Part shown: one piece after another, positions 31,012 to 60,415 of the stretch
Layout: each line of letters begins with the position of its first letter
How positions within the stretch are numbered: position 1 is the first letter of the stretch
Translations under genes and position numbers: made by a program
The notes under the pieces: generated by a model
The model's input: only the letters and a program-made list of their open reading frames with translations
Databases searched by the model: none
What the model was told of the DNA's origin: nothing
NCBI GenBank assembly: GCA_036261625.1
Contig: DATAKL010000009.1
Location: forward strand, 1,990 to 65,989
DNA: 64,000 nucleotides
Reading direction: 5' to 3'
From: Ignavibacteriales bacterium
GTDB taxonomy: Bacteria > Bacteroidota > Ignavibacteria > Ignavibacteriales > SURF-24

Positions 31012-31854
31012 ATGGAAGAAGAACCCAACAAAGAAGAACCCGGAAAAGAACCCGAACCTGAAAAGGCATCTGAATCGGGGAATGGACCTTTCGAAAGACC
31101 GGAAGAAGAAACCGGCGAAGGGGATACTGCAGGACGCCAGGAAACCACAGGACGCCAGGAAACCACAGGCGGAGAAGAGCATCATCAGGTTCCGCCTCCG
31201 GCAGGGGAAGCTCCATATTCCGGGACTTACTACCGCAAAAGGCTCCATAAATCCAGAACCAACAGGATTCTTTTCGGCGTATGCGGGGGCCTGGGGGAAT
31301 ATCTGAACATCGATCCCGTAATAATCAGGCTTATTTTTATCTTAAGTTTTCTTCTTGGCGGCTGGGGCTTTCTGATATATATTATAGCGGCCATTGTAAT
31401 GCCCGGAAGTCCCAGGACTGAAGCAGCGCCTGAAAGTGAGGAAAGTATCAGTTCCGAGAACAGCAAGATTATACTGGGCGGGGCATTAATTCTCTTCGGG
31501 CTTTATGCTCTTTTAAGGACAACGGGGTTTTTGCGTGTATTCAGTTTCTTCGGCATAACTCACGAATTTATTATTCCACTCATACTCATTGTGCTGGGAA
31601 TTGTACTGCTTACAAAGCACAGGGAATTTTTCTACAGGGAAGCTCCCGCCAGCAGAAAGCTCACACGTTCCAGTACGAACAGGATGATTGCGGGGGTCTG
31701 CTCGGGGCTGGGGAATTATCTAAATATTGATCCCACGCTTATAAGGATAATCTGGGTCATCTTAACTTTCGGATCCTTTGGGATCGGCATACTGATTTAT
31801 ATTCTTTTTGCTCTTTTAGTTCCTTTAGACAGCGAGGTAAATCTTGAGAAATGA
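31012..31854 (+). CDS. PspC domain-containing membrane protein (two PspC domains)
   Basis: Two copies of the PspC motif (RILFGVCGGLGEYLNIDPVIIRLIFIL and RMIAGVCSGLGNYLNIDPTLIRIIWVIL). Acidic low-complexity N-terminus. Confidence 0.8.
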   Translation: MEEEPNKEEPGKEPEPEKASESGNGPFERPEEETGEGDTAGRQETTGRQETTGGEEHHQVPPPAGEAPYSGTYYRKRLHKSRTNRILFGVCGGLGEYLNIDPVIIRLIFILSFLLGGWGFLIYIIAAIVMPGSPRTEAAPESEESISSENSKIILGGALILFGLYALLRTTGFLRVFSFFGITHEFIIPLILIVLGIVLLTKHREFFYREAPASRKLTRSSTNRMIAGVCSGLGNYLNIDPTLIRIIWVILTFGSFGIGILIYILFALLVPLDSEVNLEK

Positions 31855-32350
31855 CAATTCTGCGCTCAGCCTGGTTTTCATTGCCATAATAGCTGCTTAC
31901 ATCTTAAAGCTCTTCGGTGTTATAACACTGAGCACCGGAAAGATAGTAGCCTACGCTTTTTTACTTTACGGCATAGTTTCAGTTTATCTTACCATGGGGA
32001 CGCACAGGAGGGCAGGACTATTCTTTGGGACGGCCATTTTTCTTACGGGTATAGTTTTATTTATTGTAGAGTACTTCGATATAATTCAGCCCGGGATACT
32101 GGTTCTGCCGGCCCTGCTTTTTATTATAGGCATAGGATTTCTTATGCTCTTCTTCGACGATTTTTCAAACCGGGTATTTCTTTACACCTCAGGCACGCTT
32201 GTATTTTTCTCCATCCTCTCGGCATTTCTAACCAGGCGTTTCCCGATGTTCGGCTTTGCGAACAGGGTTAGCTCGGGACTTTTGGACTACTACCCCGTTT
32301 TCCTAATACTCCTCGGCATATACATTCTTCTTAACAGGAAGAGGCAGTGA
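31844..32350 (+). CDS. polytopic membrane protein (LiaF-like context), function unknown
   Basis: 168 aa with ~5 TM helices. TTG start overlapping the PspC gene stop. The start site is uncertain. Confidence 0.5.
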   Translation: MRNDNSALSLVFIAIIAAYILKLFGVITLSTGKIVAYAFLLYGIVSVYLTMGTHRRAGLFFGTAIFLTGIVLFIVEYFDIIQPGILVLPALLFIIGIGFLMLFFDDFSNRVFLYTSGTLVFFSILSAFLTRRFPMFGFANRVSSGLLDYYPVFLILLGIYILLNRKRQ

Positions 32351-32461: not shown

Positions 32462-32749
32462 ATGAATCTGCATGAATTAAGACAGAAAAGGGATCGCATT
32501 TTGCAGATAGCCTCTCTTTACGGGGCAAGGGATCTGCGGATTTTTGGTTCCATTGCCCGAAACGAGCAGACTGAAAGCAGTGATGTGGACATTTTAGCAA
32601 AAATGGAAAAAGGGACGACCTTATTAAGGCATATTTCTCTGGTCCATGCACTTGAAGAAGAATTAGGGATAAAAGTAGATGTGGTTTCTGAAAATGCTAT
32701 TAAAGGCCGAATTAAAGAAAATATTATGCGTGAGGTAATTCAGCTTTGA
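32462..32749 (+). CDS. MNT-type nucleotidyltransferase antitoxin (copy 1)
   Basis: FGSIARNEQTESSDVDIL (GS..DxD minimal nucleotidyltransferase motif). 4-nt overlap with the HEPN gene. About 90 percent nt identity to 50388-50675 by eye. Confidence 0.9.
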   Translation: MNLHELRQKRDRILQIASLYGARDLRIFGSIARNEQTESSDVDILAKMEKGTTLLRHISLVHALEEELGIKVDVVSENAIKGRIKENIMREVIQL

Positions 32750-33087
32750 GAAATGATACTGAATGGCTGAAAGATATTTTAGATGAAATTGCGCTGATTG
32801 AAAAGTATTCAGTGAAAGGAGAACTAGCCTTCCAGAAGGATGAATTAATTCAGACATGGATGATTCACCACTTGCAGACAATTGGTGAAGCAGCCGGTAA
32901 ACTGTCTGAAAATCTAAAACAAAAATATCCCTCAATCCCCTGGAGAGACATCATCTCCATGCGTAACTTTATAGTGCATCAGTATTTTGGAGTTGACCTG
33001 GAGGAAATCTGGAATACTGTCACCCATGATATCCCGGTTCTGAAAAACAATCTCAATCAAGTCCTAAAGGATCCCGATAATTCTTAG
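32746..33087 (+). CDS. HEPN (DUF86/HepT-type) toxin
   Basis: Rx4-6H motif RNFIVHQY. 113 aa. TTG start overlapping the MNT stop. Confidence 0.85.
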   Translation: MRNDTEWLKDILDEIALIEKYSVKGELAFQKDELIQTWMIHHLQTIGEAAGKLSENLKQKYPSIPWRDIISMRNFIVHQYFGVDLEEIWNTVTHDIPVLKNNLNQVLKDPDNS

Positions 33088-33235: not shown

Positions 33236-34873
33236 ATGAACAACATTACTGCAGCCATCTTATCTATTTTAAACCTTAAAAGATTCACCCGTAAACATAA
33301 GCTGGAAAAGCTAAGGTCTGCTTGGGGTCAGCCTCTTGATCGATTTCACAATTTCGATCTTATAAGGAATTATCATGAACTGGTCTGCACAGACTCTGGG
33401 GATGAATTTGTGGATGATAAAACCTGGTCGGACCTCAATCTTAACGATGTTTACTCCTTAATTGACAGGAATATCAGCGGCCCCGGCAGACAGTATCTTT
33501 ATCACCTGCTTCATAAGTATGAACTGAACGATGACAAACTTGACAGCCGGTTTAACCAGATAAAACTGTTCAAAGAAAACCAGGGAATAAGAGAAAAAAT
33601 ACAATTAGCCCTTCAGAGACTCAGCAGCGACGATACTTACTTTATAATCAGCCTTCTTCTTGGTGAAAAGCCCATAATTCCCAAATATCCCAGGCTGATT
33701 TATTTATCTTCGGCTCTTTCAATTCTTTCTATTCTGGCTGCATTTTACAACAGCACTTTCTTTTTTGCCGTATTGTTTATGGCGGTGCTAAACCTGATAA
33801 TAACTAAAATATATTCTTCCGGGATCTATGAATCCTTCATCGGATTTTCCAATCTAAATAAAATGATAGTTTCAGCAAATGAGCTTGCCGGCTTAGAGTC
33901 TGAAACAGCAATTGAACAGCTTTCTGTTCTTAAGAAACATTCCGGGGTCCTGAAAAAGCTGAATAAAAAAGTTTCCCACCTTGTAATTGATAAATCGCAG
34001 CTTGATACTTTTGCACAAACAGTTATAGAATACTTAAATATGTTCTGCCTGTTCGATCTGGTTGCATACACCAGATCCGTTATCGAATTGTACAAATACA
34101 AGAAAGAGCTTAAAGAGGTTTTTGATGCCGTGGCAAGTCTGGATGCACATATTTCAATTGCATCCTACTTTTGCAGCATCCCTTATTATTCAAAGCCTGA
34201 ATTTATTTCGGGGAACACAATATCCTTCGATGAGGTTTATCATCCATTGATTGATGAAGCGGTACCGAATTCTATAAGCGGGTTAAGCAGGTCGGCTTTG
34301 ATTACCGGGTCCAATATGGCCGGTAAAACCACATTTATTAAATGTATAGGTGTAAACACAATTCTTTCCCAAACACTCGGGTTTACTCTTTCCAGAAGAA
34401 CAGTAATTCCAAAGCTGATTGTCAAATCTTCAATAAAGATCGAAGACAGCATTGCAGATTCCAGGAGTTATTATTTTTCGGAAGTTGAAGAGATTAAAAA
34501 ACTTATCGGTCTGAGCAGAACGGAGAAGAAATATCTTTTTATAATAGATGAGATTTTCAGAGGGACCAATACAGTTGAAAGGCTTGGAATTTCCGCAGCC
34601 GTACTTAAGCAGTTAAACCATAACAACCTGGTGCTGGTTACGACACATGACATTGAGCTTCAGGACCTGCTGGATAACTCATTTTCCATGTATCACTTCA
34701 GTGAGCAGGTAGAAGGAGACAGATACTATTTTGATTTCAGGATAAAGGAAGGTCCCTGTTCCTCCGGCAATGCCATTAAGCTCCTGGAGCTGACAGGCTA
34801 CCCCGAGCAAGTCACTAATGAAGCAAAACAGATCAGCAATAGGATAATAAGCAAAGAAGGAGTAAATATCTAA
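33236..34873 (+). CDS. MutS-domain-V (ABC-like) ATPase with central transmembrane segment; lacks mismatch-binding domains
   Basis: Walker A GSNMAGKTTF, Walker B LFIIDEIFRGTN and TTHDIEL. Hydrophobic helices around aa 150-195 (IYLSSALSILSILAAFY..FFFAVLFMAVLNLIITKIY). No MutS domain I. Confidence 0.8.
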   Translation: MNNITAAILSILNLKRFTRKHKLEKLRSAWGQPLDRFHNFDLIRNYHELVCTDSGDEFVDDKTWSDLNLNDVYSLIDRNISGPGRQYLYHLLHKYELNDDKLDSRFNQIKLFKENQGIREKIQLALQRLSSDDTYFIISLLLGEKPIIPKYPRLIYLSSALSILSILAAFYNSTFFFAVLFMAVLNLIITKIYSSGIYESFIGFSNLNKMIVSANELAGLESETAIEQLSVLKKHSGVLKKLNKKVSHLVIDKSQLDTFAQTVIEYLNMFCLFDLVAYTRSVIELYKYKKELKEVFDAVASLDAHISIASYFCSIPYYSKPEFISGNTISFDEVYHPLIDEAVPNSISGLSRSALITGSNMAGKTTFIKCIGVNTILSQTLGFTLSRRTVIPKLIVKSSIKIEDSIADSRSYYFSEVEEIKKLIGLSRTEKKYLFIIDEIFRGTNTVERLGISAAVLKQLNHNNLVLVTTHDIELQDLLDNSFSMYHFSEQVEGDRYYFDFRIKEGPCSSGNAIKLLELTGYPEQVTNEAKQISNRIISKEGVNI

Positions 34874-34959
34874 ACATCTTCTAAGCAGTTATCCGGCTTC
34901 AGTCCGGAAGACTTTCGATTGTATTTCTTCATTTATCGGGCTGAGTTGAGCCCCTTGTT

Positions 34960-35748
34960 TTATTTAGAATCCATGAATACCACTTCATCGGCATTAAAAT
35001 ATTCGGGATCGAAATCATCTCCCGCCCATTCTTTCATCTCTTCATAATCCTCAGAATCCTCATTGCTTAAAGTATCGAGAAGTTCCTCGTAGCCCCAGGA
35101 ACCGCCGCAATCCTCAGGCGGGCAAGCCCTTTCACCGGCAAGGCAAACCGGGTAGGTAAGGTTTTCATCCCTTGGCAGGGATTTCTCAAACTTTATTGTA
35201 TGCTCCCAGCAATCCCCAAAATCGTACGTATATAATGCTTTCGAATTCAGCCTGGAGAAATAATTCGCAACTTTGTGTTTTTTCCCCTCAATTACCCCGG
35301 GAGCCATTTCATCTGGTATACCGATACTTACCTCAAGGCCTGTTTTCGGGTTCATTATCTTAAACTCATGCAGATGGTAATTAAGCCATCCCATTGCATC
35401 CTGAATTGCATTATGCAGCTGTTCGAAATTATAAGTTTCAGGCACCTGTATACGCCGCCATATCCTCGGCTTTACATCGTGGAGAGTGATTTTGAACTGA
35501 TAAACATTTTCAAACTGCTTTTTACTGCCCTTTTTACCGGCACCCTCAGTGTTCGCGACCTGTCCGGTGTTAGCTTTCGCCGTCTTGAACAGCCCTCCCG
35601 ATTCCTTCATTGCTTTCAGGGGAATAAGTCCTATACTGTCCTCGAGTTGAAATATTTCGAGCTCATCTCCCGGCTCCAGTTTCAGCTTTTTCCGTATCTC
35701 TTCGGGGATAACAACCTGATATTCCGGTAAGATTTTTACAATTGTCAT
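34960..35748 (-). CDS. AbrB/SpoVT-like N-terminal domain fused to a pRiA4b ORF-3-like (PRiA4_ORF3) domain
   Basis: N-terminus VVIPEEIRKKLKLEPGDELEIF (swapped-hairpin AbrB/MazE pattern). C-terminus YQFKITLHDVKPRIWRRIQVP ... CPPEDCGGSWGYEELL, typical of PF07929. Confidence 0.75.
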   Translation of the reverse strand: MTIVKILPEYQVVIPEEIRKKLKLEPGDELEIFQLEDSIGLIPLKAMKESGGLFKTAKANTGQVANTEGAGKKGSKKQFENVYQFKITLHDVKPRIWRRIQVPETYNFEQLHNAIQDAMGWLNYHLHEFKIMNPKTGLEVSIGIPDEMAPGVIEGKKHKVANYFSRLNSKALYTYDFGDCWEHTIKFEKSLPRDENLTYPVCLAGERACPPEDCGGSWGYEELLDTLSNEDSEDYEEMKEWAGDDFDPEYFNADEVVFMDSK

Positions 35749-36113: not shown

Positions 36114-36163
36114 TAATATAAACAATCGGAAAGGACTTGACCAATACTCAACCTGAAGGCAGA

Positions 36164-36652
36164 ATGGAATTTAAGTTTTATTATGCAAAACATAAGTCCA
36201 AATTGTACTTTTATGTATTCAGAATGCTGAATGATAAGATGCTTACCGATGACATTGTGCAGAATGTGTTTATTAAACTTTATGAGAATATGGATAATAT
36301 TAATAACCGGGAATTTATAGCATCATGGATCTATAAAACTGCAAGAAATAAGGTTTATAGCTTTTTAAGGCATAAAAAAAGAAAAGCCGAGGAGCTGATT
36401 GACGACGAAGAGCCGCTATACTCTGAAACGCTGACGGATGAAATGGATAATGTTGAGTTGAGGGAAATGATTATGTCGGCACTTGAAACTATCCCTGAAG
36501 AGCAAAGGGAAGCTTACCTGCTGAAAGAATATTCAGGCTTCAGCTATAAAGAGATAGCATCTCTTCAGGACATTGATGAAGAATTGGTCAAAAGCCGCCT
36601 TTTCCACGCAAGAAAGAAACTGATAGCTAAAATAGCCAAGGTCATTTTATAA
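36164..36652 (+). CDS. ECF (group 4) sigma-70 factor
   Basis: Region 2 (DDIVQNVFIKLYEN..WIYKTARNKVYSFLR) and region 4 (AYLLKEYSGFSYKEIASL..VKSRLFHARKKL). ATG 36164 preferred to TTG 36137. Confidence 0.85.
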   Translation: MEFKFYYAKHKSKLYFYVFRMLNDKMLTDDIVQNVFIKLYENMDNINNREFIASWIYKTARNKVYSFLRHKKRKAEELIDDEEPLYSETLTDEMDNVELREMIMSALETIPEEQREAYLLKEYSGFSYKEIASLQDIDEELVKSRLFHARKKLIAKIAKVIL

Positions 36653-36668
36653 TAAAAGGAATGATCAT

Positions 36669-37136
36669 ATGAAATGCGAAGAAATTCAAGAATTGATAAG
36701 CCAATTTAGTGACGGCTCTCTGGAAACAGAAAAAGAGGCCTTCATATTTGCACATATGTCGGTGTGCCCCGGGTGCAGGACATTCTTAAAATCTATTAAC
36801 ACGCTTAGCTTTTCAGCTCAGAGAGAAGAATTCTATTTCCCTCCTGAACTGGACAAGAAGGTCATCAGCAAAACCGAAAAGAGGAAAGCGAAAAAGCACG
36901 TAAACATTCTTACCATGAAATATCCGGCATATGTTTCCTTTTCATTCGGAGCAGTTGTGATATTATTGCTCTTCCTGCTTTTTAAGTCAACAACAGAATA
37001 CAGGCAGGAGCTTCATGAAGCCATGGAAAACATGCAGCAGCAGAATAAGCAGATTCAGACTATACTGAACAGCTACCCTGAAATTCAGGTTCGGCCTAAA
37101 CAGGTAAATGAAATATTCGTTAACAGAAAATTGTGA
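36669..37136 (+). CDS. anti-sigma factor (zf-HC2 type, single TM)
   Basis: N-terminal H..C..C motif (HMSVCPGCRTFL) and a TM helix YVSFSFGAVVILLLFLLF. Follows the sigma gene. Confidence 0.65.
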   Translation: MKCEEIQELISQFSDGSLETEKEAFIFAHMSVCPGCRTFLKSINTLSFSAQREEFYFPPELDKKVISKTEKRKAKKHVNILTMKYPAYVSFSFGAVVILLLFLLFKSTTEYRQELHEAMENMQQQNKQIQTILNSYPEIQVRPKQVNEIFVNRKL

Positions 37137-39485: not shown

Positions 39486-39974
39486 TTGAATAATACTTTA
39501 GTTCATATCCCATCAGAAAAATTATATAAAATGTATTCTGATGATATTTTAAGATATTCTTTTAGCATCCTAAGAGATTATGAGGAAGCTAAGGATATGG
39601 TGCAGGAAGTATTTATCCGGCATTTTGAAAACGAACAGTCATTTAAGGGAGCCTGCAGTTATAAAACGTGGCTCCTGATCATTACCCGGAATCTCTTTTA
39701 CTCTAAAATCAAAAGCAAAAGCTTTACAAATGAAAGAGTTGACGAAGAACTTAATGATTCTGTTTTTGAAGTAAACTATGAAATTAATATTTCTATAAAA
39801 GATGCGTTAATGAAAATCCCCTCTGAATATAGTGAATTGTTATATCTGAAAGAAGCAGAGGGCTATTCGTATGAGGAAATATCTCAAATTACAGAAACCT
39901 CACTGGATAACGTGGCCGTCAGATTACACAGAGCAAAGAAGATGCTAAGGAAAATATTAAAAGACCGGTATTAA
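39486..39974 (+). CDS. ECF (group 4) sigma-70 factor (second copy, distant paralog)
   Basis: Region 2 (KDMVQEVFIRHFEN..WLLIITRNLFYSKI) and region 4 (LLYLKEAEGYSYEEISQI..VAVRLHRAKKML). TTG start; the start site is uncertain. Confidence 0.8.
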   Translation: MNNTLVHIPSEKLYKMYSDDILRYSFSILRDYEEAKDMVQEVFIRHFENEQSFKGACSYKTWLLIITRNLFYSKIKSKSFTNERVDEELNDSVFEVNYEINISIKDALMKIPSEYSELLYLKEAEGYSYEEISQITETSLDNVAVRLHRAKKMLRKILKDRY

Positions 39975-39975
39975 T

Positions 39976-40704
39976 ATGAAACATTATGATTATGAAATAA
40001 GCCTTTTTGTTGAAGATGAACTGCCGGATGAGCAGATCACTTTACTGAATATGCATTTAGCCGGCTGTAAAAGCTGCAGACAGGTTTTATCGGATTATAT
40101 GGAAATAAAAAATGAAGTTTCAAAATTCTATAAAAACCTGCCTTCGGATATTCAGGAACTGAATCAAAGTGGTTTAAGCACCAATTTTAATAGAAGTATA
40201 ATAAAAGGGATCCATAAAAACAGCCTTAATACTGAAATCAAATCTTTTAGAAGGAAGAAATTCTTTATACCAGTTTCTGCGGCTGCTTCTTTCATTATTG
40301 CCGTGTTAGCTTTCTGGAATCTTTGGCATCATGATATTCAAGATACATTTAAGAGCGGCAGCACTCCTGCTTTTCAAAAAGACATAGAACAGACAACTTC
40401 CAACAAGAATACTTATTCCCCTCATCTATATGCGGCTGAAGACCAGACGACGAGGGAAAGTACCAGGGCACTAAAAGATCAGGTTGAAAGTATAAAAAGG
40501 CTGAAGACTGATTCTCTAGATAATAATTATGTCCTGACTGTTGAATGCTTTAATGAGGAAATTGATAAGGCTATAGCGGCTCACAAAGATAGACTTAAAA
40601 ATACAGGCTATTTGGTCTCCTTTTCCAGGTATTCTGAATTTGAGGATTTCAATGCAGTTATTGACAGTGCCTTATTAAAACAAAACTTACAAATCTTAAA
40701 CTAA
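39976..40704 (+). CDS. anti-sigma factor (zf-HC2 type, single TM)
   Basis: HLAGCKSCRQVL motif and TM FFIPVSAAASFIIAVLAFW. The start lies 1 nt after the sigma gene stop. Confidence 0.65.
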   Translation: MKHYDYEISLFVEDELPDEQITLLNMHLAGCKSCRQVLSDYMEIKNEVSKFYKNLPSDIQELNQSGLSTNFNRSIIKGIHKNSLNTEIKSFRRKKFFIPVSAAASFIIAVLAFWNLWHHDIQDTFKSGSTPAFQKDIEQTTSNKNTYSPHLYAAEDQTTRESTRALKDQVESIKRLKTDSLDNNYVLTVECFNEEIDKAIAAHKDRLKNTGYLVSFSRYSEFEDFNAVIDSALLKQNLQILN

Positions 40705-42585: not shown

Positions 42586-44011
42586 GGTAATGTCTTTATC
42601 TTTGTGTAAAAAATAAAAAGAAGGAGGTGCCGCTCCAGTTTATTAAATTTGAATTGCAAAAAACAAAATTTAGTAAAAAAGGAGACAGCACCATGAGCAC
42701 AAAGTTAAATGCATCTAGTCAAAAAAACAAATTATTTGAAGAAATGTTAGAGCTGGAAGGAGGAGGCGGCCTCTTCCGGGAATTCTTTAAGCGAGGAATG
42801 GAAAAGCTCCTTCAGGAAAGCCTTGAAGGAGAGGTAACGGACTTCCTTGGCCGCAGCTGGTATGAGCACAACCCGGAGGGGAAAAGAAAAGGCTACCGTA
42901 ACGGATACTATGACCGGCAGGTAAAAACAAGCGAGGGTCTCCTGGAACTTAGGCAGCCTAGAGTACGGGACACCGATGAAGAGTTTAGAAGCAGGATCCT
43001 GGAAAGGCTTGACAGCCTGGAGGACAACCTCAAGTACCTCTCCCGTGAGATGTACATTAGGGGCCTCTCAACCCGTGACATAGAGGATACCTTTAGAGAT
43101 GATAGCGGAGAGGCACTTTTGTCCAAGAGCTCCGTAAGCCGCCTAAACTCTGAAATGATAAAGGAATATGAGGAGTTTACCTGCCGTGACCTCTCGGAAC
43201 TGGATGTGGTTTATCTCTTTATTGACGGGGTTTATGAGGCTGTTCGCAGGTTTACGGGTAATAGGGCCTTGCTCTGTGCCTGGGGCATATTGTCTGACGG
43301 GACAAAGCGCTTAATCCATGTAGCGGCAGTTGAAAGTGAGAGTAAGGCATCCTGGGAGGTGTTCTTTGAGGATATGACGAGCCGTGGCATGAGGCATCCA
43401 CTGCTCGTTGTAAGTGACGGGGGTAAAGGGGCAGGTGCTGCCATAGTAAAAAGCTTCCCCAAGGCTGACCGGCAGAGATGCTTGGCCCACAAGCTCAGGA
43501 ACATTGCCTCAAAGCTTCCAAGGGACCGCCAGGCTGAGGTGCTTGCAGCTATAAAAGGGATCTATTATGCCTCTGATTACGAGGCTGCAAAGGTCCTGGC
43601 TTCTGATTTCATTGACAAGAATATTGACAACTACCCCTCTGCAGTCAAGTGCTTCAGTGAGGATCTGGATGCCTGCCTGGTCAATCTCAATTATCCCATG
43701 AGTCACAGGAAGTTCATTCGCACTACAAACCTCTTAGAAAGGGCATTTGAGGAAGAGAAAAGAAGGACCAAGGTGTTCCCCCAGCATGCAAGTGAGAAGG
43801 CCCTTACGGGTCTTGTCTTCTCTGTCCTTTACAGGGCATCACAGAACTGGAAGAGAATTGGGATGAGGGATGATGAACTGAAAATACTGAAGAACATCAG
43901 GAAACTGATGACTAATGAAGAATCAACCGGAGACTATATTTCATATAGACTGGCAGCGTAGAGCCTCCTATGAAAAATATTTTTACACAATAAAAAAGAC
44001 TTGACCACTGG
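42586..44011 (+). mobile_element. IS256-family insertion sequence (~1.43 kb) with 9-bp target duplication
   Basis: ATTCAGTCC occurs at 42577-42585 and 44012-44020. Imperfect terminal inverted repeats: GTCTTTATCTTTGTGTAAAAA near the left end vs the reverse complement of TTTTTACACAATAAAAAAGAC near the right end. Single transposase ORF. Boundaries uncertain by about 6 bp. Confidence 0.8.
42693..43961 (+). CDS. IS256-family (Mutator-type) transposase
   Basis: 422 aa from the ATG with AGGAGA upstream. Motifs DGVY, VVSDGGKG and RQRCLAHKLRNI are typical of Transposase_mut. Confidence 0.9.
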   Translation: MSTKLNASSQKNKLFEEMLELEGGGGLFREFFKRGMEKLLQESLEGEVTDFLGRSWYEHNPEGKRKGYRNGYYDRQVKTSEGLLELRQPRVRDTDEEFRSRILERLDSLEDNLKYLSREMYIRGLSTRDIEDTFRDDSGEALLSKSSVSRLNSEMIKEYEEFTCRDLSELDVVYLFIDGVYEAVRRFTGNRALLCAWGILSDGTKRLIHVAAVESESKASWEVFFEDMTSRGMRHPLLVVSDGGKGAGAAIVKSFPKADRQRCLAHKLRNIASKLPRDRQAEVLAAIKGIYYASDYEAAKVLASDFIDKNIDNYPSAVKCFSEDLDACLVNLNYPMSHRKFIRTTNLLERAFEEEKRRTKVFPQHASEKALTGLVFSVLYRASQNWKRIGMRDDELKILKNIRKLMTNEESTGDYISYRLAA

Positions 44012-58102: not shown

Positions 58103-60415
58103 ATGAGGCATAACTATAAGAGACTGTGGATCGGCCTGGGAGCTGTTATAATTTTTTCTTTTCTTATTCTGGCATATTACGGCGTGGAAATCTATCAGCA
58201 GGCACCCCCTGAACCAAAGCGCGTCGTGACAACTGAGGGACGGGTGCTCTTTACAGGGCAGGATATTAAAGACGGACAGAACGTCTGGCAGTCCATTGGC
58301 GGACAGGAACTTGGAACAGTATGGGGGCACGGAAGCTATGTGGCGCCCGACTGGACGGCAGACTGGCTGCACCGCGAAGCCGTGTGGATGCTGAACAATT
58401 ACGCTATGAATTCATACGGCACCGCTTACGATAAAATAGATAACCAAAAAAAAGCCTCCCTCACAGAAAAACTGAAAGAGGAACTCAGGCGTAATACCTA
58501 TAACCCTGAAACCGGAGACTTGACCATATCTGAAGACCGCGCACGCGCAGTAAGCGATATAAGCTCTTACTATGCCTCTTTGTTCGGAAATGATCCTGAA
58601 CTTGACGAGCTCAGGCGTGACTATGCCATACCCGAAAACACGATTAAAGACCCTGAACGCCAAAGAAAAATGAACGCATTTTTCTTCTGGGCATCCTGGG
58701 CCTGCGTTACTAACCGTCCCGGTCAGAATGTAAGTTATACGAATAACTGGCCTTCGGAACCTTTAGTCGGCAACCAGCCCACGGGTCAGATTGTAATCTG
58801 GTCTGTTATAAGTTTTGTACTTCTTCTTGCCGGAATCGGAGCCCTGGCCTGGTATTATGCAGTCCAGAGGAGGAAACCGGAAGAAGAACATGTTCTGCCC
58901 GAGTGGGATCCGCTTCTGGCCTTAAAACCCACAGCCTCCATGAGGGCAACGCTTAAGTATTTCTGGGTCGTGGCGGCCCTGATTGTCCTTCAGGTAATTA
59001 TGGGCGTCATAACAGCTCACTACGGCGTTGAAGGCAACGGTCTCTACGGCATCCCGCTTGCAAAATGGCTCCCTTATTCTGTAACAAGAACCTGGCACAC
59101 TCAGCTCGGCATCTTCTGGATTGCAACGGCCTGGCTTGCAACGGGGCTTTTTATTGCACCTGCCGTTTCGGGCTATGAACCGAAACTCCAAAGAGCAGGG
59201 GTTAACTTCCTCTTTGTCTGCCTGCTTATAATTGTCCTGGGCTCCATGGCAGGCCAGTGGCTGGGAGTCGAGCAGAAGCTTGGGCTCGAAATCAATTTCT
59301 GGTTCGGGCACCAGGGCTATGAATACGTGGACCTTGGGCGCTTCTGGCAGATATTCCTCCTTGTGGGGCTTTTCCTATGGCTTTTCCTCATGGGGCGCGC
59401 TATGCTGCCGGCATTTAAGAACATGGCGGAAAACAAGCACCTTCTGGGGCTTTTTCTAATCGCCAGCATTGCAATTGCTCTGTTCTATGCTGCCGGGCTC
59501 ATGTGGGGGCGCCAGACCAACCTGGCAATAGCAGAGTACTGGAGGTGGTGGGTTGTGCATCTCTGGGTGGAAGGATTTTTCGAAGTCTTTGCAACCGTGG
59601 CAATAGCGTTCCTTTTTACCAGGATGGGTTTACTAAGAGTAGCCACTGCAACCTCTGCCGTTCTGTTTTCAACCATTATATTCCTCTCGGGCGGAATTGT
59701 AGGGACATTCCATCACCTCTACTTTACCGGAACCCCCACGGCTGTAATGGCTTTCGGCGCCACTTTCAGCGCGCTTGAAGTTGTGCCCCTTGTTTTAATA
59801 GGTTTTGAGGGCTATGAGAATCTTACCTTAAGCCGCGCAAAGAAGTGGGTCGAGGCCTATAAGTGGCCCATCTACTGCTTTGTAGCCGTAGCATTCTGGA
59901 ACCTTGTTGGCGCGGGACTCTTCGGATTTCTCATAAATCCCCCGATTGCCTTGTACTATATGCAGGGGCTTCAGACTACTCCCGTGCACGGGCACACGGC
60001 GCTCTTCGGCGTATACGGAATGCTGGGAATCGGTTTTATGCTCTTCTGCCTGAAAGGTCTTACTGTGCATTACGTCTGGAAGACAAAAGCGCTCTCGTTT
60101 GCTTTCTGGGCAATTAATATAGGTTTAAGTCTTATGGTGCTTATCAGCATGCTCCCTTTAGGACTTATACAGACCTGGGCCAGCGTGGAGCATGGAATGT
60201 GGTATGCCAGATCGGCTGAATTCACAAAGATCCCTCTTCTTGACACGCTTAGATGGCTGAGGGTAATCGGCGACACAATCTTTGCCTTCGGAATACTTGC
60301 ACTCGGCTACTTTGTAATGGGCCTTAAGACAGGCTGGTCTATAACAAAAGAAGTTGATGCCGTCGGGAAAGAATTTCCTGAAGGAGCACCTAAAGGATCG
60401 GAAACAGCATCCTGA
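58103..60415 (+). CDS. norB: quinol-dependent nitric oxide reductase (qNOR) large subunit
   Basis: 770 aa with a long N-terminal extension. YKRLWIGLGAVII...GHGSYVAPDWTADWLHRE closely parallels characterised qNOR N-termini. C-terminal 12-TM heme-copper-oxidase-like core. Confidence 0.93.
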   Translation: MRHNYKRLWIGLGAVIIFSFLILAYYGVEIYQQAPPEPKRVVTTEGRVLFTGQDIKDGQNVWQSIGGQELGTVWGHGSYVAPDWTADWLHREAVWMLNNYAMNSYGTAYDKIDNQKKASLTEKLKEELRRNTYNPETGDLTISEDRARAVSDISSYYASLFGNDPELDELRRDYAIPENTIKDPERQRKMNAFFFWASWACVTNRPGQNVSYTNNWPSEPLVGNQPTGQIVIWSVISFVLLLAGIGALAWYYAVQRRKPEEEHVLPEWDPLLALKPTASMRATLKYFWVVAALIVLQVIMGVITAHYGVEGNGLYGIPLAKWLPYSVTRTWHTQLGIFWIATAWLATGLFIAPAVSGYEPKLQRAGVNFLFVCLLIIVLGSMAGQWLGVEQKLGLEINFWFGHQGYEYVDLGRFWQIFLLVGLFLWLFLMGRAMLPAFKNMAENKHLLGLFLIASIAIALFYAAGLMWGRQTNLAIAEYWRWWVVHLWVEGFFEVFATVAIAFLFTRMGLLRVATATSAVLFSTIIFLSGGIVGTFHHLYFTGTPTAVMAFGATFSALEVVPLVLIGFEGYENLTLSRAKKWVEAYKWPIYCFVAVAFWNLVGAGLFGFLINPPIALYYMQGLQTTPVHGHTALFGVYGMLGIGFMLFCLKGLTVHYVWKTKALSFAFWAINIGLSLMVLISMLPLGLIQTWASVEHGMWYARSAEFTKIPLLDTLRWLRVIGDTIFAFGILALGYFVMGLKTGWSITKEVDAVGKEFPEGAPKGSETAS

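Follow-up and report, generated by a model that had tools for sequence, protein, structure and literature searches.

What does a MutS-like protein do when it lacks the mismatch-binding domain and the clamp of its namesake and carries instead two strongly hydrophobic helices near the middle of its chain? This question is raised by a gene in a 64,000-nucleotide stretch of Ignavibacteriales bacterium DNA (contig DATAKL010000009.1; the whole stretch is called the window here), where an open reading frame (ORF) with an ATG start, 33236..34873 on the forward strand, encodes 545 amino acids plus the stop beside a toxin-antitoxin (TA) module. A preliminary description, made from the letters of the window, had presented the product as a membrane-associated ATPase reduced to MutS domain V, unlikely to perform mismatch repair and perhaps engaged in genetic conflict. 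The explanation that we prefer, with about as much belief as doubt, is that it belongs to the MutS family, stands alone, is tethered to the membrane and works at the inner membrane face as a switch or clamp driven by ATP, outside both mismatch repair and the TA module. The structural and mechanistic core of this explanation is likely, and any specific physiological role is a weak proposal.

The MutS core and its hydrophobic hairpin

Searches with Pfam placed MutS_V (PF00488) on residues 355-536 with 95.6 bits, against a gathering cut-off of 30.2, and aligned MutS_III weakly and below threshold to residues 72-309 (18.6 bits, E 0.0025); in some relatives the latter profile exceeds its cut-off (P0201, 46.1 bits against 34.1). 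We also built a profile from 28 family members and compared it with the MutS of Thermus aquaticus (Taq). Residues 56-118 align to Taq MutS 270-332, which is the start of domain III, and residues 273-525 to Taq MutS 512-764, where domain III ends and domain V with its C-terminal helix-turn-helix (HTH) follows. Because the profile aligns only these flanking parts, residues 119-272 stand in for the segment of levers and clamp.

The AlphaFold2 model (predicted local distance difference test score, pLDDT, 84.5; predicted template modelling score, pTM, 0.84) agrees with this layout, being all-helical up to residue 312, with a helix at 152-169, a five-residue turn and then an unbroken 44-residue helix, 175-218, that leads back into the core. 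When the model was searched against the PDB with Foldseek, the top 50 matches were all MutS or MSH chains, with E-values of ~1e-18 to 1e-15 over ~500-600 columns. The N-terminal 330 residues are, in short, a MutS domain III core with its lever helices (core residues ~56-330), and the stretch 56-151 contains the conserved motif VDDKTWxDL...DRNxSxxGxQxLY. Domains I, II and IV were not detected with Pfam, NCBIfam or the Taq MutS profile, there being no Pfam match to MutS_I or MutS_II, and the N-terminus lies only ~55 residues ahead of domain III. At the other end no Smr or KOW domain was found, and the protein stops 8 residues past the HTH of domain V. Since domain I and the clamp are absent, the protein cannot recognise mismatches in the manner of MutS1. 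All catalytic motifs of the ATPase are intact and catalytic competence is predicted, with K364, S411, E416, D438, E439 and H471 each kept in at least 99% of 78 homologs.

At the lever tip, a 46-residue hydrophobic helical hairpin (residues 152-197) takes the clamp's place. Kyte-Doolittle means over 19 residues reach 2.17 in its helices, and on the Hessa scale their best 17-residue windows score -0.50 and -1.54 kcal/mol, while the best window elsewhere in the protein scores +5.5. Across the family the Hessa sum is negative for one helix in 82% of members, compared with 1% of the best windows taken from elsewhere in the proteins. An alignment of the 78 homologs, drawn from many phyla, shows how regular the element is. 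A hydrophobic stretch with Kyte-Doolittle peaks of 2.0-2.85 lies ~175-200 residues ahead of Walker A in ~78 homologs; in 70 of them helix 1 is 18 residues long, the turn has five in every one (78/78) and is nearly free of charge (consensus F-F-N-P-x), and helix 2 consists of ~15 apolar residues followed by a belt of aromatic and basic residues (H/Y/W/N/K/K). Aromatic and Lys/Arg belts mark the cytoplasmic side of the hairpin.

Within the hairpin, Asn186 (33791-33793) is present in 75 of the 78 sequences and replaced by His in the remaining 3, a stripe of serines runs along helix 1 (S159 in 42/78, S162 in 43/78, S165 in 35/78), and His190 occurs in 49 homologs, with Thr in the window protein. 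Identity is low at the other positions of the hairpin, and low identity outside Asn186 and the serine stripe is the pattern expected for lipid-facing helices. Comparison with an 85%-identical ortholog gave a ratio of nonsynonymous to synonymous substitution rates (dN/dS) of 0.09 for the whole gene, which is real and under strong purifying selection, and of 0.064 for the hairpin, the lowest of four regions. This low ratio, together with Asn186, the serine stripe and the invariant length of the turn, argues that the hairpin is a functional module and not a mere anchor. Firmicutes relatives have the same hairpin with its Asn and, in addition, a classical N-terminal transmembrane (TM) helix, which makes the membrane location hard to doubt.

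The observations on the hairpin have also to be set against the possibility of a soluble MutS paralog that hides its hydrophobic helices within protein, for instance at the interface of a dimer or tetramer. The shortness of the helices, the apolar turn and the marginal hydrophobicity of helix 2 in many homologs would suit such a protein. It is nevertheless very improbable in our judgement, because the hairpin projects from the lever tip at the MutS clamp site, exceeds every other segment by far in Hessa hydrophobicity, has the low identity of a lipid-facing element apart from Asn186 and the serine stripe, and is accompanied in Firmicutes homologs by an extra TM helix resembling a signal anchor. 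Judged from sequence, the hairpin looks membrane-inserted rather than buried.

Much of the preliminary description stands on this evidence. The MutS-type Walker A and B, signature-like and H-loop motifs that it listed are all present in a protein with a clear MutS_V match, the two strongly hydrophobic helices that it placed around residues 150-195 were located at 152-169 and 175-197, and its proposal of a membrane-associated ATPase of MutS or ABC (ATP-binding cassette) type gains support from a hairpin in place of the clamp; its view that mismatch repair is unlikely has been borne out. It was also right that the N-terminal region lacks domain I and clamp features, but the label "domain-V-only" has to be dropped, as residues ~56-330 form a domain III core with levers.

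A proposed membrane switch and its possible ligands

By analogy with the structures of other MutS proteins, the family member would form a head-to-head dimer, and in that arrangement both hairpins would point away from the ATPase heads and both could enter the cytoplasmic membrane from inside. The C-terminal HTH mediates dimer contacts in MutS. Binding and hydrolysis of ATP at the two composite sites would move the levers, as happens in the conversion of MutS1 into a sliding clamp. Such motion would alter the packing of four membrane helices, with their conserved Asn and serine stripe, and would also alter the size of the cavity enclosed between levers and membrane. A lever motion with these two effects would make the protein an ATP-driven switch or clamp.

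Hints about what it might act on come from distant relatives. With tblastn we found relatives matching over the full length (27-32% identity, 90-97% coverage) and encoded by plasmids of Firmicutes, namely of Staphylococcus epidermidis, S. capitis, S. aureus, Clostridium and Ruminococcus; they are common on the plasmids of staphylococci and clostridia, and one of them adjoins a gene of the AIPR family. In a 12-kb Clostridium perfringens plasmid (NZ_CP075915.1; L087 1-5514) a C39-peptidase ABC exporter, HlyD, the family member and a Blp-type bacteriocin with a GG leader follow one another on the same strand, and the annotation gives this bacteriocin operon no immunity gene of its own. Staphylococcal copies sit on epidermin and nukacin plasmids, and in the table of the epidermin plasmid a hypothetical ORF of 58 amino acids adjoins the MutS-like gene (PMC8765612). 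We found a 58-amino-acid ORF with two TM segments directly downstream of the staphylococcal homolog in S. epidermidis PM221 plasmid 2 (L088 8350-8526). The staphylococcal plasmid copies are often located beside rep genes, and their contexts otherwise vary.

A second association was found in a small clade with ~51% identity to the window protein, whose members carry a C-terminal LuxR/GerE HTH. Their genes are followed by one for a 43-amino-acid CxxCxxC peptide, MNPTLNLDNAVIDAPIQECAACFACMATPAVPDIEWALFLLAW, and by genes for a radical-SAM/SPASM enzyme and an ABC exporter, an arrangement present in two independent metagenomes (L092 2398-7852; L097 270-5679). From its gene content the locus looks like an undescribed operon for a ribosomally synthesized and post-translationally modified peptide (RiPP), with the membrane-anchored MutS-LuxR protein as candidate regulator. 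Both the bacteriocin and the RiPP associations are lineage-specific and form no family-wide pattern.

On these grounds we put forward, tentatively and with more doubt than conviction, a role in sensing or handling a membrane-proximal ligand, for which membrane-active peptides (bacteriocins or RiPPs) are the best-hinted class. A bolder version, speculative and in our estimate unlikely, would see in the family a separate type of mechanochemical ATPase, its lever-and-clamp machine turned from DNA towards the membrane. Lever movements driven by ATP would rearrange an intramembrane bundle of four helices, held by a network of conserved Asn and Ser, and the machine would sense, or confer immunity to, membrane-active peptides; it would have become a LuxR-type membrane-bound regulator of a radical-SAM RiPP operon in one clade and part of a class II bacteriocin operon in Clostridium.

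A nucleic acid at the membrane is hinted at as the target by the heritage of the family and by the HTH fusion. A membrane-tethered nucleic-acid clamp, a dimer closed by the membrane that encircles or binds DNA, RNA or a ribosome at the inner face, would fit this hint, and it might tether a plasmid or chromosome, deal with DNA entering the cell or, like MutS2, rescue ribosomes bound to the membrane. MutS1, MutS2 and MutS5 are DNA-binding proteins, and collided ribosomes are a target of MutS2 (PMC2190696, PMC12292046). The scaffold of levers and core that forms the DNA channel is retained, the lever segment of residues 198-290 is mildly basic on average, one clade has acquired a DNA-binding HTH of LuxR type, and rep genes are frequent neighbours of the staphylococcal plasmid copies. 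Against this, domains I and IV, the main DNA contacts of MutS1, are missing; the basicity is low (+1 to +1.5 per segment, standard deviation ~2); there are no DNA-metabolism neighbours among the flanking genes of the 83 homolog loci that we surveyed for context; and the HTH fusion resembles the gain of an output domain more than a trait of the family. We regard such a clamp as an unlikely explanation. It is favoured by the fact that, to our knowledge, nucleic acids or ribosomes are the targets of every characterised MutS paralog apart from KamC.

This last point also speaks against the membrane-tethered switch that we prefer, and so do several others. The dimer geometry and the orientation of the hairpin are taken solely from homology. 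Helix 2 is marginally hydrophobic in most homologs (median +1.75 kcal/mol on the Hessa scale), and the helices are short (~16-18 hydrophobic residues) with an apolar turn between them, so that the hairpin may be re-entrant rather than spanning. As to the proposed ligand, bacteriocin or RiPP genes were not enriched among 281 flanking genes in the 83 loci, and the link with peptides is based on few lineages, with nothing of the kind near the window gene.

The family, its genomic contexts and the TA neighbours

The family to which the window gene belongs, as an ordinary member, is very large, was catalogued long ago and is uncharacterised. A search with the full-length protein returned more than 2380 homologs, the top 120 of them with ~50% identity or better over the whole length. 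With the N-terminal 335 residues alone, searched against 1.84 billion representatives, we obtained 1654 clusters (50% identity) at E <= 1e-3 and 754 at the stricter E <= 1e-10; almost all are proteins of 520-620 amino acids with the module at the same position. Relatives occur in at least 597 species genomes, and the phyla and groups with hairpin homologs include Ignavibacteriota, Bacteroidota, Gemmatimonadota, Acidobacteriota, Calditrichota and Xanthomonadales. The preliminary statement that such proteins are widespread in Bacteroidota and have no demonstrated function agrees with these numbers, extended beyond that phylum, and with our literature search, in which neither a function nor a membrane hairpin was found described for the family; an earlier description is possible. 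Numerous subfamilies of prokaryotic MutS without domains I and II are still uncharacterised according to a 2024 review (PMC12292046).

Two annotation problems were met along the way. The plasmid copies bear the name "DNA mismatch repair protein MutS" in RefSeq and PLSDB records (hits H1-H25), which is likely a systematic misannotation, because the mismatch-binding and clamp domains are missing; naming of this kind, almost certainly wrong, can mislead on mutator status or repair capacity. The other problem concerns the start codon. A protein identical to that of the window, in an Ignavibacteriales metagenome-assembled genome (P0001), is annotated from V59 and has 487 amino acids. In close relatives the 58 residues ahead of V59 are conserved, Trp30 among them being invariant, and the ATG at 33236 is therefore the better start; judged from this conservation, the public start, 58 codons late and dropping window positions 33236-33409, was probably mis-called. 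Firmicutes relatives have their full N-terminal TM helix at the position of residues 1-30. Promoter-like and terminator-like sites flank the ORF; a promoter scan around the gene gave a signal not above chance, and a terminator-like hairpin at 34938-34953 lies between it and the convergent AbrB-PRiA4 gene. Table 1 lists the features of the gene and its neighbours.

Table 1. Positions of the segments and motifs of the MutS-like protein and of the adjacent genes (window coordinates)
Feature	Position	Strand	Residues	Basis or remark
MntA-like nucleotidyltransferase	32462-32749	+		complete type VII TA module with HepT; neighbour, outside the system
HepT RNase	32746-33087	+		4-bp overlap with MntA; neighbour, outside the system
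N-terminal segment, short hydrophobic/amphipathic, then basic	33236..33325	+	1-30	net charge +6; pLDDT low at residues 1-14
First half of domain III-like core and outgoing levers	33401..33688	+	56-151	Taq profile; Pfam MutS_III; model helices H61-142
Hairpin helix 1	33689..33742	+	152-169	hydropathy; model; alignment of 78 sequences
Five-residue apolar turn (FYNST in the window protein)	33743..33757	+		alignment of 78 sequences
Hairpin helix 2, continuing into the return lever (H175-218)	33758..33826	+	175-197	model; alignment
Return lever and second half of domain III-like core	33827..34225	+	198-330	residues 273-330 on Taq MutS from 512; helices H175-312; Foldseek
MutS domain V (ABC-type ATPase) and C-terminal HTH	34226..34870	+		Pfam; NCBIfam; Taq profile
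Walker A, GSNMAGKTT	34307-34333	+	358-366	
ABC-signature-like motif, SRSYYFSEVEE	34460-34492	+	409-419	
Walker B, LFIIDE	34535-34552	+	434-439	
D-loop region	34556-34582	+		FRGTNTVER, following Walker B
H-loop, TTHDIEL	34640-34660	+	469-475	
C-terminal HTH	34751-34846	+		
AbrB/MazE-type N-terminus, antitoxin-like and DNA-binding (residues 10-45), fused to PRiA4_ORF3 (PF07929, E 1.2e-65)	34960..35748	-		262 amino acids; convergent with the MutS-like gene; neighbour, outside the system

The preliminary description had drawn its conflict-related role from the position of the gene beside a TA module at an island edge. The edge is real as a compositional step: at ~32.4 kb the GC fraction falls from 0.47 (ValRS, PspC) to 0.39 (MntA, HepT and the MutS-like gene). 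The window yielded neither a tRNA nor an Rfam match, and repeats flanking the MutS-like gene were not found either, so that no mobile-element boundary is marked. The conclusion drawn from TA adjacency is not supported: in the context survey neither MntA, HepT and AbrB-PRiA4 nor the PspC and LiaF-like genes of the window were found within 6 kb of any homolog (0/83 loci).

No other partner emerged from the survey. Clustering of all 840 neighbouring ORFs left no family spread over more than 7 loci, and no family is common to the 281 flanking genes: Pfam searches of the immediate (147) and second (134) neighbours matched 159 and 155 different families, with at most 5 and 3 members, respectively. 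Even orthologs with 85% and 73% identity are not syntenic with the window, and synteny was seen only within genera, for instance in Pedobacter and Mucilaginibacter. Some ortholog loci are housekeeping ones (G6PD, 6PGL), and others lie near an integrase, a restriction-modification (R-M) system, IS110, AbiEii or HigB. Contexts that vary in this way, with no conserved neighbour, indicate that the MutS-like gene is stand-alone and that its adjacency to the TA pair is coincidental and uninformative on function.

Two apparent regularities were discarded. A C39-peptidase ABC exporter that seemed to recur in 6 loci proved to be a single-linkage artefact of generic ABC ATPases, a true pair of C39-ABC and HlyD being present only in a Roseivirga locus (L039), two genes away. 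Two-component pairs of LytTR type occur within 6 kb in 7/83 loci, in varying positions and orientations; because their placement varies and such pairs abound in Bacteroidota, we treat them as background.

These data bear directly on the idea of a conflict component, that is, an anti-phage or abortive-infection effector that might cooperate with MntA/HepT or AbrB-PRiA4, for example through an ATP-gated, membrane-disrupting hairpin. The GC step beside the TA pair, the orthologs close to integrase, R-M, IS110, AbiEii or HigB genes, and the distant relatives frequent on staphylococcal and clostridial plasmids, including the one next to an AIPR-family gene, would all suit an effector of this kind. 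However, its supposed partners are absent from the homolog loci, and the search of the MutS-like protein with PADLOC returned only AbiLi (14.5 bits, E 0.0033), which is not significant, with scattered generic matches and no enrichment of defence genes among the neighbours of the homologs. In addition, some orthologs occupy housekeeping loci, gene order is kept inside the genera Pedobacter and Mucilaginibacter, 2.9 million viral contigs yielded only 5 relatives, and the boundary has neither repeats nor a tRNA. A conflict component is accordingly improbable here; a role of the conflict type is possible for the distant plasmid-borne Firmicutes relatives, for which the window gives no evidence.

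The two findings named in advance as speaking against the preliminary interpretation were a buried hydrophobic segment and orthologs in conserved housekeeping contexts. What we found is a hairpin that looks membrane-inserted and ortholog contexts that are unconserved, neither housekeeping nor defence. At the level of the window the result is negative, the gene being an ordinary family member about whose function the TA neighbours are silent; the family itself is interesting, and this instance and its TA neighbourhood are ordinary.

Several further features of the surroundings were recorded. MntA and HepT both score under their NCBIfam equivalog cut-offs, and in PADLOC the MntA-like nucleotidyltransferase hits the candidate family PDC-S09 (E 2.7e-31). 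At 31012-32350 on the forward strand, just upstream of the TA pair, a protein with two PspC domains and a repetitive N-terminus rich in Glu, Thr and Gly is followed by an overlapping LiaF-like gene with multiple TM segments; this is a pair of the envelope-stress type, not conserved near the homologs. The low-GC stretch extends from ~32400 to ~51000 (GC 0.33-0.41) and contains two modules of extracytoplasmic function (ECF) sigma and anti-sigma factors (36137-37136 and 39486-40704), a TonB_C protein, redoxin-like proteins, a 1098-amino-acid cargo protein of type IX secretion (T9SS) and a transposase of the IS256/Mutator family (42627-43961). A quinol-type nitric oxide reductase with NorB cytochrome-c-like and COX1 domains (58103-60415, forward strand) is unrelated to the MutS-like gene.

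Comparison with known MutS proteins and related ATPases

The scores of the window protein against the NCBIfam equivalogs for MutS1, MutS2 and KamC all lie three- to seven-fold under the cut-offs. Its best matches in sequence and fold are with MutS1 (Escherichia coli, T. aquaticus; PDB 1E3M, 1EWQ, 7OU2), with which it shares the domain III core, the levers, the domain V ATPase and the HTH. MutS1 has in addition domain I with its Phe-x-Glu mismatch wedge, domain II as connector and domain IV as clamp, all three of which the window protein lacks, the hairpin replacing the clamp. The family also has its own motif variants (GSNM.GKT, DEIFRGTNxxER, THD.EL), and the MutS1 equivalogs gave 120.4 bits against a cut-off of 480 (NF003810) and 97.4 against 641.7 (TIGR01070).

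MutS2/RqcU (Thermus, Helicobacter, Bacillus; PDB 7VUF, 7QV3) resembles the window protein in lacking domains I and II; it is a dimeric machine of core, levers and ATPase that has been turned to a target other than mismatches (PMC12292046). It keeps the clamp and has C-terminal KOW and Smr domains, which the window protein lacks, whereas the hairpin is unique to the window family, and the match to the MutS2 model reached 81.3 bits against a cut-off of 400 (TIGR01069). KamC, the reactivase of lysine 5,6-aminomutase, is likewise a MutS-domain-V ATPase with a task unrelated to DNA. Only the ATPase region matches its model (NF052383, 90.7 bits against a cut-off of 300), with a score on a level with those of the other MutS models, no kam or aminomutase genes lie near the window gene, and the NCBIfam name of KamC gives no membrane association. 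In streptococcal quorum sensing, the "MutS" of the MutRS system is a peptide with no relation to these proteins.

Among catalogued groups, a probable match is MutS3 of Lin, Nei and Ma 2007, described as having MutSac (domain V) close to the C-terminus and in some cases also MutSd (domain III), of unknown function and of patchy distribution that includes Staphylococcus aureus and the flavobacterium Polaribacter (PMC2190696). Architecture and taxa fit the window family, which is probably this MutS3, matched by the described architecture and taxa; the paper (PMC2190696) makes no mention of membrane helices.

The window protein differs from an ABC transporter in having a hairpin of only two helices with a 5-residue turn, no conserved permease neighbour and a nucleotide-binding domain of MutS type. 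A parallel in the way of working alone is offered by mechanotransmitting ABC systems and ATPases of the SMC/Rad50 type, in which ATP-driven engagement of the ABC heads is passed along long helical arms to a distal module; compared with the mechanotransmitting ABC systems, the window protein lacks a homologous TM domain, a periplasmic domain and a partner permease gene. MutS itself is the classic ATPase that scans DNA, and within its family there are precedents for a change of target, since MutS2 took the MutS mechanism to ribosomes and KamC took it to enzyme reactivation. The exchange of clamp for hairpin in a large paralog family would, if true, extend the same mechanism to membrane biology.

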